A stretch of 64,000 nucleotides of DNA from Nitrospirae bacterium GWF2_44_13 (GCA_001805105.1 MHEE01000015.1:208778-272777); one strand, 5' to 3'; shown: positions 58,391 through 64,000, counted from the first letter of the stretch. Program-made: numbers and translations. Notes: generated from the letters alone by a model not told the origin.

Positions 58391-59747
58391 CAGGGAGTTT
58401 GCGTCTAACTTGGTGGGGCTTGCCCTCAGAAACGGCGCGGAGCAGGCAGAGGCATACATAAAGTCATCCAGAAATCTGTCTCTGGAAGTGAAAAATCAGG
58501 AATTAGACGCCGTGGAATCCTCTCTGAGTTTCGGTTATTCCCTGCGCGTTATACGGAATGGGAAACTCGGATTTTCCTACTCAACATCTACTGATGAGTC
58601 GGAATCAGTCATAAAAAGTGCGATAGAGGCGGCAAAATGGGCTGATGCGGATGAATATCTGGACATGCCCCGAGTTGCTCGGGGCTCACCGCAGGCAACG
58701 GAATACGGAAGCCTTGAAGTATTTGACGGAAAGGGATGGGACATAAAAGAAGACGAGGCGGTAAAGCATGTTCTCATCATAGAAAAAGCGGCAAATGATT
58801 TTGACAAAAGGATAAAGAAAACGAGAAAGGCCACAGGGGCCTTCAGCAGCGGCGAGATATTTATACTGAATTCAAAAGGAATTGACATATCATATCCGTA
58901 TACAAAATTTACCGCGCAGGTTATGACCGTGGCCGAGGAAAACGGCGAGAGCCAGATGGGATGGGATTTCAACGGAAGCAGGCTTTTGCAAGACGTATCG
59001 TTTGAAGATGTCGGCAGAAATGCCGCAAAGCGTGCGGTCCAGATGCTTGGTGCAAAAAGGATTAACACCGTAAAAGCGCCCATAATCCTTGACAATTCAG
59101 TGGCATCCGAGTTTCTGGGCATATTTGCATCGTCTTTTTCAGCGGAATCAGTGCAGAAAGGCAGGTCGTTATTAAAAGATAAAATCGGGCAGAGGGTAAT
59201 AAGCCCGAAGGTCAATCTTATTGACAGCGGCATCATTCCGCGCAGGCTCGGCACAAGGCCTTTTGATGATGAAGGAGTTCTGACATCCGAAAAAGTTTTG
59301 ATAAAAGAGGGAGAGTTGATGGGCTTCCTTCACAATACTTACACCGCAAAAAAAGAAGGGGCGCATTCCACAGGCAATGCAGTTCGCGGAGGGAATGAAA
59401 AAATGGGGCTTCCATCAGCAGGGATATTAAATCTGTACCTGAAAACCTCTTCCGAATCCGATGTCATACCCTTCAACACTCTCATCGCATCTATGGATAA
59501 AGGCCTTTACATAACAGAGGCTATGGGCGTACATACTGCAAATCCCATAACAGGAGAATTTTCCATTGGAGTTTCGGGTTTGTGGATAGAAAACGGGATA
59601 ATAAGATTCCCCGTAAAAGAGGCTGTAATCTCAGGAGACATGCTCGGCCTTTTTGAGAGGATAGAGGCAGTAGGCGATGATATGAGATTCTACGGCAATA
59701 TAGGAACTCCGAGCCTGCTTATCGGGCCGACAGACATAAGCGCGTAA
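58380..59747 (+). CDS. TldD/PmbA-family metalloprotease-like protein
   Basis: N-terminus ...ALRNGAEQAEAYI and a C-terminus typical of the PmbA/TldD family. I start at the ATG at 58380, overlapping the queD stop; the track ORF from 58290 overlaps queD. Confidence 0.85.
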   Translation: MKTNREFASNLVGLALRNGAEQAEAYIKSSRNLSLEVKNQELDAVESSLSFGYSLRVIRNGKLGFSYSTSTDESESVIKSAIEAAKWADADEYLDMPRVARGSPQATEYGSLEVFDGKGWDIKEDEAVKHVLIIEKAANDFDKRIKKTRKATGAFSSGEIFILNSKGIDISYPYTKFTAQVMTVAEENGESQMGWDFNGSRLLQDVSFEDVGRNAAKRAVQMLGAKRINTVKAPIILDNSVASEFLGIFASSFSAESVQKGRSLLKDKIGQRVISPKVNLIDSGIIPRRLGTRPFDDEGVLTSEKVLIKEGELMGFLHNTYTAKKEGAHSTGNAVRGGNEKMGLPSAGILNLYLKTSSESDVIPFNTLIASMDKGLYITEAMGVHTANPITGEFSIGVSGLWIENGIIRFPVKEAVISGDMLGLFERIEAVGDDMRFYGNIGTPSLLIGPTDISA

Positions 59748-59779
59748 AACAAATCTAATACAAACGCAATAAATAGCGT

Positions 59780-59860
59780 GTCATTGCGAGGAGTGAAACG
59801 ACGAAGCAATCTTGTATTTACTGCGAGATTGCCACGCTCTCTTCGGTCGCTCGCAATGAC
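59780..59860. repeat. 81-bp compound palindromic element (GTCATTGCGAG...CTCGCAATGAC with inner GCAATCT/AGATTGC)
   Basis: The 11-bp terminal inverted repeats are perfect. It lies between two convergent genes. Confidence 0.85.
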
Positions 59861-59916
59861 AATGTAAAAATAGTTAATGCGTTTATATTAATCTGTTCCT
59901 CTTAGCCCTCTAAAAA

Positions 59917-62900
59917 TCACTTGCCCGTCTTCCCTATCGGAAAAGCCTGTCCGCTTATCGATATTGTCGGATACTGCGCCTTCTTAAAAACTCTTTCCGC
60001 AAGAACAGGCACTTCACTATCAACATAATCAGCAAGCTCTGTAGTCTTAACATATCCTGTCTTTCCCTTATCAGCCTTCCCCTTTAATCCTTCAACAAGC
60101 ACATAAGTGAACAGGCCATGCCCCTGATAACCTTCAACAGCCTCCTGCAAAGATGTTGAAGCTGAAAGGATGGTTGAGCCCACAGCCCTGCTTAATATCT
60201 TCATTGCAGTGTCTTCGCTCATTCCCCTTGTAAGCATCGCCACCTGTATTGCCTCTCCCAAAGCGCCTGCGCTGCATGTGTCAATAATAATCAGTTTCTT
60301 TGTTACCGGGATATTGGCTATAAGCTCTTTAAGCATTCCCTGCGGCAATGCATCTGTCTTTAGTTTTTCTGTTCTTGTTGAGCCGACATTTGAGGTAATA
60401 AGAAAATACTCTCCGTTATCAACTGTTCCGTGACTTGCAACAAAAAAGACAAATACATCGTCAGGGTTCAATGATTTATAGGCTTTAAGCTCTTTTATGA
60501 TGCTTTCATTTGTCGTCTTTTCTTTTGTAACGAGTTTTTTAATATTTACTTTTTCAAAAAGCCCTGCTGTAACTTTTTTAAGAGTATCTTCAAAAAGTTC
60601 TGCGTCTGAAACCGCATACTTGAGTTGCAGCTTCGGGTTTTTATATTCGTTGATACCTACTATAATGGCATTTAAAGACGGCTTTGTCAGGGATTTGAAT
60701 GTGGCGGTTATCTCATAAAGCACATCATTGCTCTGCATTGTATTTTCACCGTTAAAGGCGATTGCACGGATAGTGTTCAAGCCGTTTGAGAGTTTAAGAT
60801 TATATACCTTATAAACTGCCTTATAAACTGCCTTGTCGTCCTTAGGGATTATCTTTACTCCCCTTGCGCTGTCAAGGACTACAGCAGAGCCGTTGAGATA
60901 GAGCCTTATGTCTCCTATGCCTCCGCCAATGTCAGTTATCTTAAGGGTTATCGCTGCTACGTTCTTATCCGTGCTTTTCGGTGTATCAACAAGCGTTACA
61001 ACCGGCGGCTGCTTAACATCAGCCAATGTCTTAAAGTCTTTTAAAGAGCCGCCTGATAGGGCAAGTTTCACAAGGTCAGGACGATAAAATGCTTCGCGGT
61101 AATTTTCAATGCCATAGACGTTATTGCCGATTCTTACATTCAGGTGCTTGTCGCCATTGGCAGATGAGTTGTAATAGCCCTCAGGAGTAATCACTATCCA
61201 TTCGCCATCGGTGAAGCTGATAAATTGGGCAAGTTCTTTGCCTGTATTTATATCCCAGATTCTCGTTGTGCCATCAGCACTTCCTGAGAATGCATATCTG
61301 CTATCAGGGGAAAAGGCGATGGAAGTAACATATCTTGTATGTCCTAAAAAAGTTCTTATCTTTTTTTCAGTTGATATATCCCAGAGTCTTAGAGGATGAT
61401 AATTTTCGTCCCCTGACAATGCATAGTTACCGTCAGGAGAAAAAGCTAATGACTTAAGCCAACCATATGAGAACTCAGGAAATTTTCTTATCTCCTTTCC
61501 TGTTAATATATCCCATATCGTTATCGTTCCATCCACACTCCCCGACAAAACATACCTGCCATCAGGGGAAAAAGATGCGGAGAACCCCCTAGTTAAAAAT
61601 GTCCTTATTTCTTGCCCTGTTGATATATCCCAGAGTTTAATGCCTTTAGAATCACCCGACAATGCATATTTCCCGTCAGGGGAAAAGGCAACCGAGGTTA
61701 CACCACCAATAAGGTTTGTATGCCCTGTGAATGTCCTTATCTCTTTGCTTGTTTCCGCATCCCAGAGTTTGAGGGTGGCATCCAAATGTCCTGACAATAC
61801 ATATTTCCCATCGGGAGAAAAGGCTGCGGAATTAACCATGCTTTTATGCCCTGTAAATTGTTTTATCTCTTTGCCTGTTTCTATGTCCCAGAGTTTGAAG
61901 GTCACATCCTGACTTCCTGACAACACATATTTGCCGTCAGGGGAAAGAGCTATAGAGCTAATCCAGCTGCTATGCCCTGTAAAAACCTTTGTTTTTTTGC
62001 CTGTTGAAATATCCCAAAGCCTAAGGATGCCATCCTCGCCCCCTGCATACACGCCATTAGGAGAAAAAGCTACAGAGGAAACCTTAATTGAATGCCCTGA
62101 AAATGTCCTTATCTCTTTACCTGTTGCAACTTCCCAAAGTATAAGGGTCTTATCTTCACTTCCTGACAATGCATATCTGCCATCAGGGGAAAAGGCAACA
62201 GAGCTAACACTAGCTGTATGTCCCTTAAATGTCCTTATCTCTTTACCTGTTGCAACTTCCCAAAGTATAAGCTCCCAACTTCCAGACAATGCATATTTAC
62301 CATCAGGGGAAAAAACAACAGAATCAACTCCACCGATTACTCGCTCCATAGCAAATTGCCTTATTTCTTTTCCTGTAGAAATATCCCAGAGCTTAAGAGT
62401 GTCACCACCTCCACCTGACAATGCGTATCTGCCGTCAGGGGAAAAAGAGACTGAGTAAACATATTTTGTACCTTCTTCAAATGTCTTTACTTCTTTACCT
62501 GTAGCTACATCCCAGAGCTTGAGGGTTTTATCGCTGCTTCCTGACAATACATATCTGCCATTAGGGGAAAAAGCTACTGAGCTAACTTTATCTGTATGAC
62601 CTGAAAAAGTTCGTATCTCCTTGCCTGTTTCTACTTCCCAGAGTTTGAGGGTATGGTCATCATCAACCCCACCACCTGCCCCTGACAATGCATATTTCCC
62701 ATCAGGAGAAAACGCAACGGAGGCAATCCAACTTCTATGCCCTGTAAATGTCCTTATTTCTTTGCCCGAAGCAATATCCCACAGTTTGAGGGCTTTGTCC
62801 CAACCCCCAGACAATGCATATCTGCCGTCAGGGGAAAAGGCAACAGAGCTAACTTTATCTGTATGGCCTGAAAAAGTCCTTATCTCTTTTCCAGTTGCAA

Positions 62901-63105
62901 CCTCCCAAAACTTGAGGGTTTTGTCGTAACTCCCTGACGACAGTGCAAATCTGCCATCGGGGGAGAAAACAACGGAATTAACAGTCCCCGAATGCCCCAT
63001 CTGCACAAAAATCTCCGGTTTCTCCGCGGCAGCGCTTGATTTTGAGAAAAGCACAAGCAGAAAAAGACTTATAAATACTTTCTTTGCAAGAGAGGTTCTA
63101 TACAT
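59917..63105 (-). CDS. Secreted 14xWD40-repeat protein with a C-terminal caspase-like (peptidase C14) domain
   Basis: Signal peptide MYRTSLAKKVFISLFLLVLFSKSSAAA. There are fourteen GH...WD/WE units, some near-identical. The C-terminal domain has SHG and DTCSAG (His/Cys dyad). I start at the ATG at 63105 with GGAGG upstream. Confidence 0.85.
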   Translation of the reverse strand: MYRTSLAKKVFISLFLLVLFSKSSAAAEKPEIFVQMGHSGTVNSVVFSPDGRFALSSGSYDKTLKFWEVATGKEIRTFSGHTDKVSSVAFSPDGRYALSGGWDKALKLWDIASGKEIRTFTGHRSWIASVAFSPDGKYALSGAGGGVDDDHTLKLWEVETGKEIRTFSGHTDKVSSVAFSPNGRYVLSGSSDKTLKLWDVATGKEVKTFEEGTKYVYSVSFSPDGRYALSGGGGDTLKLWDISTGKEIRQFAMERVIGGVDSVVFSPDGKYALSGSWELILWEVATGKEIRTFKGHTASVSSVAFSPDGRYALSGSEDKTLILWEVATGKEIRTFSGHSIKVSSVAFSPNGVYAGGEDGILRLWDISTGKKTKVFTGHSSWISSIALSPDGKYVLSGSQDVTFKLWDIETGKEIKQFTGHKSMVNSAAFSPDGKYVLSGHLDATLKLWDAETSKEIRTFTGHTNLIGGVTSVAFSPDGKYALSGDSKGIKLWDISTGQEIRTFLTRGFSASFSPDGRYVLSGSVDGTITIWDILTGKEIRKFPEFSYGWLKSLAFSPDGNYALSGDENYHPLRLWDISTEKKIRTFLGHTRYVTSIAFSPDSRYAFSGSADGTTRIWDINTGKELAQFISFTDGEWIVITPEGYYNSSANGDKHLNVRIGNNVYGIENYREAFYRPDLVKLALSGGSLKDFKTLADVKQPPVVTLVDTPKSTDKNVAAITLKITDIGGGIGDIRLYLNGSAVVLDSARGVKIIPKDDKAVYKAVYKVYNLKLSNGLNTIRAIAFNGENTMQSNDVLYEITATFKSLTKPSLNAIIVGINEYKNPKLQLKYAVSDAELFEDTLKKVTAGLFEKVNIKKLVTKEKTTNESIIKELKAYKSLNPDDVFVFFVASHGTVDNGEYFLITSNVGSTRTEKLKTDALPQGMLKELIANIPVTKKLIIIDTCSAGALGEAIQVAMLTRGMSEDTAMKILSRAVGSTILSASTSLQEAVEGYQGHGLFTYVLVEGLKGKADKGKTGYVKTTELADYVDSEVPVLAERVFKKAQYPTISISGQAFPIGKTGK

Positions 63106-63140
63106 CTTGCACCTCCAAGTTCTTGAAATCAACTATCTGG

Positions 63141-63183
63141 ATTCCCGCCTGAGTTTATCCCGCAGTTGATGCGGGGCGGGAAT
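63141..63183. repeat. Nested hairpin element ATTCCCGCC...CCCGCA-gttga-TGCGGG...GGCGGGAAT in the 5' leader of the WD40-caspase gene
   Basis: Perfect 9-bp outer and 6-bp inner inverted repeats, read directly. Confidence 0.8.
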
Positions 63184-63213
63184 GACGGAATTAGCTGTTT
63201 TTCATGCTCTCAA

Positions 63214-63240
63214 ATTATATCAGCGCACCCTTTTTGTCAA
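63214..63240 (-). promoter_or_regulatory. Promoter-like module TTGACA-N15-(TG-A-)TATAAT upstream of the WD40-caspase gene
   Basis: The minus strand reads TTGACAAAAAGGGTGCGCTGATATAAT, which carries an extended -10 TGATATAAT. Confidence 0.5.
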
Positions 63241-63274
63241 GGTAATTTTCACATCACGAAAACAAATCAGAATT

Positions 63275-63646
63275 TTATGTTATAGGTAGTTTTCTGATAC
63301 GATACTCTTTTTCATCTATTGATATAATTGCCCCTTCAGCCAGTTCGGTTTTAATTAACGGCAACACTGTTATTAGAAGCCTTGTGATTATATCAGGCTT
63401 AGCATTATCTACACGCAATGAAATAACACTCGGCCAGTTAAGTCCGCTTTATGCAATTAGCGCAGAAAAATCCAGATCCTGCGTGATAATTACGGCTTGT
63501 TCCCGATATGCCAATTGGATAATCTCAGCATCTGAAGATGTAGCCGGAAGTTTATCTGTGACACGGACAATGTTGTAGCCTCTATTTTTTAACTCTTGAA
63601 TGGTGATGGGAGATATGTGGATATCTGCTATAAACTTAAATTCCAT
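63275..63646 (-). pseudogene. DUF5615 (PIN/Mut7-C-like) toxin-like gene interrupted by one in-frame TAA
   Basis: MEFKFIADIHISP...ITQDLDFSALIA, then TAA at 63449-63451, then an in-frame continuation SGLNWPSVISLRVDNAKPD...RKLPIT to 63275. The combined length is the ~122 aa I recall as typical for the family. Confidence 0.6.
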
Positions 63647-63651
63647 ATCCT

Positions 63652-63891
63652 TTATTCGGCATAGGCATGAATAGGACGATGATACTCGCCTGCAAGCCAC
63701 GCCGCATATTCAATAACCTGAAGGATATCTTCTTTCTCAAGCTCGGGATACGCCTTAAGGGTTTCTTCATGCGTCATGCCGGAAGCCAAAAGTTTGAGCA
63801 CAAAGGCAACAGTTATACGCATCCCGCGTATGATAGGTTGTCCCATACAAACTTCCGGATTGACGGTTATACGATCAAATAGTTTAGCCAT
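63652..63891 (-). CDS. DUF433 antitoxin-like protein
   Basis: ITVNPEVCMGQPIIRGMRITV...ILKAYPELEKEDI is the DUF433 signature. It lies 5 nt upstream of the DUF5615 gene. Confidence 0.8.
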   Translation of the reverse strand: MAKLFDRITVNPEVCMGQPIIRGMRITVAFVLKLLASGMTHEETLKAYPELEKEDILQVIEYAAWLAGEYHRPIHAYAE

Positions 63892-63944
63892 GGCAAATCC
63901 TCCTTTAGAAGTATTATATCAATCCTCACATCCGAATTGCACAA

Positions 63945-63972
63945 AATTATATCAACGCCCTCTTTCCCGTCA
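63945..63972 (-). promoter_or_regulatory. Second copy of the promoter-like module (TTGACG-N16-TATAAT with TGATATAAT) upstream of the DUF433 gene
   Basis: The minus strand reads TTGACGGGAAAGAGGGCGTTGATATAAT. It is ~80% identical over ~45 nt to the module at 63205-63262. Confidence 0.5.
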
Positions 63973-64000
63973 AGGTAATTTTCATATATCATAATTTTCA

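Follow-up and report, generated by a model that had tools for sequence, protein, structure and literature searches.

A predicted exported WD40-caspase protein of Nitrospirae bacterium GWF2_44_13 with a conserved protease module and propellers that differ between alleles

Introduction

Why should a caspase-like protease be placed behind a signal peptide and a long series of WD40 repeats, and what would such a protein recognize? The question is raised by a gene of Nitrospirae bacterium GWF2_44_13 that lies in a stretch of 64,000 nucleotides (nt) of its genome (GCA_001805105.1, MHEE01000015.1:208778-272777), called the window throughout. An open reading frame (ORF) at window positions 59917-63105 codes for a WD40-caspase protein of 1062 amino acids (aa). 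A preliminary description of this DNA had proposed near-identical WD40 repeats, considered the layout unusual and likened the protein to the NOD-like receptors (NLR) of cell death and immunity.

Bacterial caspase homologues have been discussed almost solely as cytoplasmic death or immunity proteases, and the family described here would put an apparently active caspase fold outside the cytoplasm. In a survey of 2012, WD40 was the most common partner domain of prokaryotic caspase homologues (10.9%), and their N-terminal helices were regarded as possible signal peptides (PMC3501461). Our literature search found no paper on the exported WD40-caspase layout or on an assay of a family member. The analysis presented here favors, with a probability of about 60%, an exported clan-CD cysteine endopeptidase in which a constant protease module is carried on swappable recognition propellers. 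The new aspect is a pattern known from recognition molecules, a constant effector module with a binding module that is replaced wholesale at the same chromosomal site between close relatives.

Allelic propellers at a fixed locus

The gene was compared with its positional counterparts in the metagenome contig L012 and in G008, a genome of the same genus. The genes pmbA, PTPS, HPRT and one for an FHA protein flank the locus in all three, with 91-95% nt identity to the window, and each of the three has a WD40-caspase gene in this position. The 5' end of the gene (window 62990-63117, comprising 12 nt of leader and the first 38 codons) was 86.7% identical to L012 on the nt level, and the last ~450-500 codons were 85-87% identical to L012 and G008. 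The middle part, window 61276-62989, yielded no DNA alignment to L012 with blastn, and the encoded segments shared 38% aa identity. The G008 allele was likewise unalignable from window 61392 upward. The products of the three alleles differ in their build: 1062 aa with 14 blades in the window, 1118 aa with irregular blades in L012 and, after removal of the leader, ~740 aa with seven regular blades in G008.

In the comparison with L012, the synonymous divergence (dS) of the protease module was 0.64 and exceeded that of the flanking genes (0.12 to 0.39); the history of the whole gene body therefore differs from that of its surroundings. A chimeric relative, P0009, combines a propeller of lipoprotein type (93-95% identical to P0027) with a protease module of the window type (88-100% identical to the window protein). 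The joint of this chimera is located inside a conserved junction between propellers and protease, while the joints of the window gene correspond to aa 611 against L012 and aa 572 against G008. Because the joints differ from one comparison to the next, a site-specific cassette was rejected, and the propeller exchange looks like the result of ordinary homologous recombination among alleles and paralogues. A diversity-generating retroelement was also considered and dismissed; no reverse transcriptase is encoded near the gene, and the one encoded near a relative is of the group II intron type (RVT_1 and GIIM).

The closest homologue overall, P0002 of Nitrospirae bacterium GWB2_47_37 (89.6% nt identity), resides in another neighbourhood, and relative to it the gene is a mosaic. 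The leaders are unrelated (37% aa identity). Propeller 1 has a dS of 0.81 and a ratio of nonsynonymous to synonymous divergence (dN/dS) of 0.17, whereas propeller 2 has diverged recently (dS 0.075) with a dN/dS of 0.72 and 36.5 nonsynonymous to 14.5 synonymous differences. In the protease module the proportions are inverted, with 13.5 nonsynonymous to 45.5 synonymous differences, a dS of 0.18 and a dN/dS of 0.08. The contrast between propeller 2 and the module is significant (odds ratio 8.4, p 4e-7). Strong purifying selection acts on the protease module. Two genes upstream of P0002, GWB2_47_37 also encodes a 1075-aa protein of 14 WD40 repeats (L010 1745-4972), whose first 25 Pfam matches were all to WD40 or propeller families, with no protease domain among those 25. 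Its repeats are 70-75% identical on the DNA level to those of the window gene, and it could have served as a donor in repeat exchange.

Variable positions of the propellers

Positions of expected variability were defined independently of the comparison with P0002, on a relative with 14 regular repeats (P0111). Its repeat-to-repeat entropy peaked at six register positions, namely residues past the "GH" that opens strand A and residues around the Asp of the B-C turn, which are the classical top-face positions of WD40 propellers. The window protein differed from P0002 at 30 of 83 such sites and at 67 of 497 sites elsewhere (odds ratio 3.6, p 4e-6).

The similarity of the repeats to each other was lower than the preliminary description had stated. 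The 14 units shared on average 55% aa and 64% nt identity, and the most similar pair, units 2 and 4, reached 79% aa and 81% nt identity. In the 29-aa pair quoted earlier as almost identical, 27 of 29 residues agreed, and 74 of 87 nt (85%) in the DNA; the same codon was used for 18 of the 27 identical residues and a different one for nine. Tandem Repeats Finder reported a period of 126 with 71-75% matches. According to the criteria of Hu et al. 2017, highly repetitive WD40 proteins have an internal repeat identity of at least 0.7 (PMC5587647); at 0.55, the window protein is moderately repetitive. The only long exact DNA repeat measures 45 nt and is shared by units 6 and 7, with the copies 126 nt apart and the same codon at 93% of the identical residues of the two units. 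It is one sign of recent local exchange, to which the earlier proposal of recent intragenic duplication or concerted evolution is thus confined.

Domain layout

The ORF, on the minus strand, was confirmed as a real gene (Table 1). A longer version that starts with TTG at 63132 is unlikely, as the Shine-Dalgarno sequence serves the ATG at 63105, where the leaders of the family also begin. The WD40 repeats were recognized by Pfam with an E value of 6.6e-146, and the anchor [FL]SP[DN][GS] occurs 14 times at a spacing of 38-47 residues. The full-length AlphaFold2 (AF2) model contains 14 four-stranded groups, mostly with a predicted local distance difference test (pLDDT) score of 80-95. Its top matches in Foldseek were tandem double propellers, namely Nostoc 2YMU (588 aligned columns, 38% identity), Pwp2, Aip1 (1NR0) and Apaf-1. 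From these fold matches we infer that the 14 blades form two propellers of seven blades each, in agreement with the earlier reading.

The 150-aa beta-rich spacer described before proved to consist of two distinct parts. The first, a conserved junction of ~70 aa, was poorly modelled by AF2 but contains residues, among them E635, W636, T640, G643 and Y644, that are invariant across two subfamilies, A (that of the window gene) and B. The second, of ~105 aa, was modelled as an immunoglobulin (Ig)-like sandwich with pLDDT scores of 80-95 and matched CARDB (3idu) and Ig-like domains of glycosidases in Foldseek. Pfam Big_7 (PF17957) had no match in the window protein at E <= 1 and was matched in the paralogue subfamily.

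Table 1 Features of the WD40-caspase gene, in window coordinates
Feature	Position	Strand	Basis
Complete coding sequence, WD40-Ig-caspase protein, 1062 aa and stop	59917..63105	minus	ORF list, translation
Shine-Dalgarno sequence GGAGG	63112..63116	minus	read in the sequence; 6 nt 5' of ATG 63105
Predicted signal peptide, Sec/signal peptidase I type, aa 1-27 (MYRTSLAKKVFISLFLLVLFSKSSAAA / EKPE)	63025..63105	minus	hydropathy, AxA, AF2, leaders of relatives
14 WD40 blades, aa 28-627	61225..63024	minus	anchors, Pfam, AF2, Foldseek
Propeller 1, ~aa 28-340; propeller 2, ~aa 341-627	within 61225..63024	minus	
Conserved junction, aa 628-700 (FISFTDGEWIVITPEGYYN...RPDLVKLAL)	61006..61224	minus	invariant residues in subfamilies A and B
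Ig-like beta-sandwich, aa 701-805	60691..61005	minus	AF2, Foldseek
Peptidase_C14 (caspase/metacaspase-like) domain, aa 806-1062	59920..60690	minus	Pfam, Foldseek
Codon of predicted catalytic His892	60430..60432	minus	invariant; aligned with the catalytic His of TbMCA2
Codon of predicted catalytic Cys944	60274..60276	minus	invariant; sole Cys of the protein
Codon of Asp834, equivalent of the TbMCA2 S1-pocket Asp95	60604..60606	minus	invariant; aligned to the 'CCND' Asp of 4AFR
Codon of Asp942 (Cys-2), equivalent of the TbMCA2 S1-pocket Asp211	60280..60282	minus	invariant; placed by motif
Segment without DNA alignment to the positional orthologue in L012 (propeller 'cassette')	61276..62989	minus	blastn, window against L012
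45-nt exact direct repeat, copy 1, unit 6, LILWEVATGKEIRTF	62227..62271	minus	exact-match extension
45-nt exact direct repeat, copy 2, unit 7	62101..62145	minus	exact-match extension

Signal peptide and export

The protein is probably exported from the cytoplasm, to a periplasmic or secreted location, as had been proposed from its general secretory (Sec) type leader. The call was made by rule (n-region, h-region, AxA) and by conservation across the family rather than with a trained predictor. The leader contains the basic residues R3, K8 and K9, a hydrophobic core of 11 residues (VFISLFLLVLF) with a peak Kyte-Doolittle mean of 3.25, and A-A-A at -3 to -1 ahead of E28. The AF2 model shows a helix at residues 2-23 followed by a disordered stretch. 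Hydropathy indicated no second hydrophobic segment in the 1062 aa, which contain Cys944 as their only cysteine.

The family marks the same mature start. At least four unrelated leaders (MYRTSLAKKVFISLF..., MFRFKSLFRFLAVW..., MKRIFQILCAFAV... and that of G008) precede one mature start, EKPEIFVQ(L/M)GH, and relatives of ~770 aa carry lipoboxes such as LFLSSC, VTGC and LSAC in place of the leader. Among 115 relatives starting with Met, 73 had a lipobox according to a crude pattern, nine had AxA and 33 were unclassified; most of the latter are fragments, have a miscalled start or possess a leader with a different cleavage motif. All 30 relatives inspected by eye had a signal peptide or lipobox at the N-terminus, and one family member directly precedes an overlapping gene with an OmpA domain. 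In several members, including P0019, P0024, P0135 and P0149, a PDZ domain is inserted into the propeller region; this is a domain with which periplasmic proteases commonly bind the C-termini of their substrates.

Protease domain and catalytic residues

The C-terminal C14 domain of the preliminary description, with its His/Cys dyad, was substantiated. Peptidase_C14 (PF00656, clan CD) scored 63.6 bits against a cut-off of 21.4 over aa 813-1050 when the C-terminal 435 aa were searched, and 65.1 bits in a Pfam scan of the whole genome. Invariance was judged from an alignment of 30 sequences of subfamilies A and B, which are ~40% identical to each other. His892-Gly893 (VASHG), Asp942 and Cys944 (IIIDTCSAG) and Asp834-Ala835 were invariant, as was a p10-like motif, S983...Q987...E991...G995-H996-G997-F999-T1000. 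The two catalytic positions close consecutive strands in the full-length model (E884-891 and E936-943), and the same strands were found in the model of the C-terminal fragment (254-260 and 306-312 in fragment numbering). In Foldseek, the front half of the protease matched the large subunits of caspase-8 and caspase-2 with TMt values of 0.54 and 0.48 and an E value of ~2e-3.

A caspase-only profile matched MCA2 of Trypanosoma brucei (TbMCA2) in the Protein Data Bank (PDB) only weakly (E 0.13); in this alignment His892 corresponds to the catalytic His, and Asp834 to the Asp of "CCND" (4AFR). Asp942 is situated at Cys-2 like Asp211 of TbMCA2, an equivalence made by motif. The S1 pocket of TbMCA2 is lined by Asp95 and Asp211, which accept basic residues at P1 (PMC4357240; PMC6426788). 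From the invariant dyad together with Asp834 and Asp942, an active, Arg/Lys-directed enzyme is predicted from the sequence, and the protease probably cleaves after Arg or Lys. The invariant Arg960-Gly961, in a poorly ordered loop past the catalytic Cys, is a speculative candidate for an autoprocessing site. A PDB search with the sequence of the C-terminal 435 aa returned chance matches only, to pestivirus polymerases. A profile from the first alignment was dropped as a PDB query because its WD40 columns dominated the outcome.

A role as a general secreted protease that serves the uptake of nutrients would account for a putatively exported enzyme with an intact dyad. The propellers would then be no more than a stable scaffold or would gate the active site, like those of prolyl oligopeptidase or Tricorn-type enzymes, and beta-propellers do gate substrates in other peptidase families. 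A scaffold or gate, however, should co-evolve with its protease, whereas here propellers of seven, 14 or irregular blades replace each other wholesale at one locus. The concentration of variation at top-face positions and the many family members that are membrane-tethered lipoproteins also disagree with such a role, which we regard as highly improbable.

Family and distribution

A search with the module, defined as the C-terminal 432 residues, retrieved 30,571 cluster representatives (clusters at 50% identity) at E <= 1e-3 and 2,232 at E <= 1e-30, so that the family comprises at least 2,232 clusters. In the best 150 matches the module was C-terminal, in proteins mostly of 500-1470 aa. The layout that had been considered unusual, sensor first, protease last and exported, is therefore not rare but the rule in at least 2,232 clusters, almost all of which carry a lipobox or signal peptide. 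The window gene is a typical member, and what makes it interesting is not rarity but the replacement of propellers between alleles of a fixed locus.

Word-indexed searches separated subfamilies A and B. Members of subfamily A are 72-97% identical over the module. The C-terminal 430 aa are this similar across Nitrospirota, Desulfobacterota and Nitrospinota, in proteins whose propellers vary in sequence and in the number of blades. Subfamily B includes the only other C14 gene of the genome, with a module 41% identical to that of the window protein. Both subfamilies occur in Nitrospirota, Smithellaceae, Syntrophales and Nitrospinota, and B is also present in Cloacimonadota and candidate phyla. 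The family occurs in thousands of lineages, mostly anaerobes as judged by the names of the sources, and its members are labelled 'caspase family protein' at NCBI.

Matches were found in 15 of 31 related genomes, with 0-7 per genome and subfamily A in six only. Such a patchy spread would suit an NLR-like death or immunity sensor, in which the WD40 region senses an invader and activates the caspase, with death of the cell or cleavage of a death effector by the caspase as the result. The variable WD40 region, with hot-spot positions like those of highly repetitive sensor repeats, and the toxin-antitoxin (TA) pair or mobile elements in some neighbourhoods point in the same direction. The build of the protein does not. 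Searches of Pfam and NCBIfam revealed no NACHT, NB-ARC or other nucleoside triphosphatase (NTPase) domain, and leader, blades, junction, Ig-like domain and C14 domain fill the entire length. If exported as predicted, the protein could not meet phage products in the cytoplasm. A gasdermin or other effector partner is absent. Matches to known systems were weak: PADLOC-DB 2.0 gave a 'caspase' match of 30.5 bits and a repeat-driven match to HEAT-ARM_XIII, with no partner genes nearby, and NCBIfam NF047832 (caspase_w_EACC1) scored 71.9 bits, below its curated cut-off of 140. We consider an NLR-like sensor distinctly unlikely; what holds of the earlier analogy is the variable, allele-swapped propeller with its top-face variation.

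Genomic neighbourhood

The window gene stands alone between a TA-like pair on one side and the convergent pmbA on the other. The pair, which had been pointed out before along with repeat elements, is a DUF433/DUF5615 cassette located upstream. Its DUF5615 gene (PIN-like, toxin-type; 63275-63646, minus strand) is interrupted by a nonsense codon, TAA, at codon 66 (63449-63451). The orthologue in L012, of 123 codons, has CAA (Gln) at this codon, and this is the only base in which the two copies differ. Together with its promoter region, the cassette (window 63211-63987) is 98.3% identical to L012, and DUF433 is identical (dS 0), whereas the housekeeping flanks reach 92-95% (dS 0.12-0.39); the cassette thus looks recently transferred or swept. 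In the 12 kb of G008 that were compared, no DNA upstream of the allele matches the cassette. Between the stop codon of the gene and pmbA, ~130 nt (window 59759-59888) are absent from L012 and G008 and therefore represent an insertion in the genome of the window; they contain a palindromic element at 59780-59860 that resembles repetitive extragenic palindromes or miniature inverted-repeat transposable elements. Similar modules of the form 'gaaaattaccttgac...gatataat' on the minus strand precede both the WD40-caspase gene (63205-63262) and the TA pair (63935-63995, outside the region scanned for promoters). Both consist of TTGAC, a spacer of 15-16 nt and an extended -10 element.

Other members of the family have richer surroundings. 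The paralogue in the same genome (C15:27000-38000, L005) encodes a WD40-Ig-caspase protein of ~985 aa with the mature start EKPEIFVQLGH and the 41% identical module. It belongs to a cluster, coding for exported proteins, in the order CHAT, DUF4140/DUF4139, TPR, a 183-aa protein, the paralogue, DUF4384 and MlaE/F/D; the paralogue cluster of G008 is laid out likewise. In G024 (L014, C1:942000-961999), a cluster comprises genes for FecR-TPR, DUF4384, a caspase (962 aa), a CHASE2 adenylate/guanylate cyclase, TPR-CHAT, a second caspase (954 aa), a zinc-ribbon protein, a serpin and a subfamily-A WD40-caspase. The stop codon of the serpin gene lies 2 nt before the start of the WD40-caspase gene, a possible protease-inhibitor pair.

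Clusters of this kind raise the alternative that the protein is one protease of an extracytoplasmic signalling or envelope-monitoring cascade and makes or destroys a periplasmic signal. Such a cascade would further consist of DUF4384, DUF4139/DUF4140 and FecR-like proteins, exported CHAT proteases and the CHASE2 cyclase. The positions of the paralogue, of its counterpart in G008 and of the subfamily-A gene of G024 speak for this role, as does P0002, the closest homologue, which sits inside a similar cluster; the genome of the window itself encodes one CHASE2 and two CHAT proteins. On the other hand, the window gene is isolated from such clusters, as are its two positional orthologues, the contexts of other subfamily-A genes are not conserved, and no serpin was found in the genome of the window. 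Moreover, a housekeeping step would not be expected to swap its entire recognition domain between close relatives. A role in such a cascade appears doubtful, though it retains some weight. Small ORFs upstream of two subfamily-A members were unrelated to each other.

Proposed mode of action

We propose that the leader of 27 residues directs export via the Sec system and that signal peptidase I cuts after Ala27 to yield a mature protein starting with EKPEIFVQMGH. The two seven-bladed propellers, a fold supported by the model, would bind a protein or peptide partner via their variable top-face residues. The conserved junction and the Ig-like sandwich would link them to the C14 domain, which is predicted to act through His892 and Cys944 and to cut after Arg or Lys. 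The propeller region is exchanged among alleles and paralogues, by what looks like homologous recombination, and diverges fastest at the positions that would face the ligand, with the protease module conserved.

Several observations weigh against this proposal. In the recently diverged propeller 2 alone, the enrichment of differences at the hot-spot positions was not significant (7 of 42 against 26 of 252, p 0.29). Nowhere did dN/dS exceed 1; positive selection was not demonstrated, and relaxed constraint is a possible cause of the divergence. The caspase domain is only moderately well modelled, with pLDDT scores below 50 in the p10-like half after the catalytic Cys (aa 945-993), and the faint match to TbMCA2 belongs here as well. 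The promoter scan of 59700-63400 flagged no canonical promoter; it skipped the module TTGACA-15 nt-TGATATAAT upstream of the gene because its spacer was outside the range of the scan. Finally, the contexts compared for subfamily-A genes differ, and no conserved neighbour was found that could hint at a substrate of the window protein.

The partner of the propellers may be a variable or non-self extracytoplasmic protein of a phage, a bacteriocin, a competitor or a variable surface protein; we put this forward tentatively, at slightly less than even odds. A more specific version, which we consider unlikely, is an extracytoplasmic, NTPase-free recognition system in which recombination-swapped propellers aim the caspase at non-self proteins that touch or enter the periplasm. 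Its targets may include ejection or tail proteins of phages, bacteriocins and effectors of competitors. If this were true, the protein would be a periplasmic counterpart of repeat-based innate immune receptors, and every strain would have a propeller allele of its own at the fixed locus.

Should the choice of substrate lie with the propellers, the family would amount to a natural collection of binding specificities built on a single protease. It would also hint at an unexplored layer of envelope biology, in defence and competition or in proteolytic signalling. If they do not, the protein is one more member of a large family catalogued in outline in 2012.

Comparison with known systems

Among known proteases, the bacterial orthocaspases and metacaspases (C14B), such as MaOC1 of Microcystis and TbMCA2 (4AFR/4AF8), share with the window protein the C14 domain, the dyad of His-Gly and Cys and both acidic S1 residues. 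In contrast to these, its protease is C-terminal instead of N-terminal, is predicted to be exported and is preceded by the junction and the Ig-like domain, and in sequence it matches metacaspases of solved structure only weakly (E 0.13). Gingipain R (C25), which is Arg-specific, is presumably similar in being an extracytoplasmic clan-CD cysteine protease with an S1 Asp (Asp163 of RgpB) and an adjoining Ig-like domain. The window protein differs from it in belonging to C14, in having no propeller-free prodomain and no C-terminal domain of the type IX secretion system, and in the placement of the Ig-like domain before the catalytic domain.

The highly repetitive WD40 proteins, represented by Nostoc 2YMU, have in common with the window protein the tandem double seven-bladed propeller and units of 42 residues (PMC5587647), and 2YMU is its best structural and sequence match. 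The relatives P0008 and P0111 are truly highly repetitive, while the window protein, with an internal identity of 0.55, is less so, is fused to a protease and is predicted to be exported. The prokaryotic metacaspase-(NACHT)-WD40 proteins and the sensors of the Apaf-1 and fungal NLR type likewise combine WD40 repeats with a caspase and vary at the top face (PMC3501461; PMC7159879). The window protein departs from them by the lack of an NTPase, the reversed domain order and the putative signal peptide, so that any sensing would take place outside the cytoplasm and without nucleotide-driven oligomerisation.

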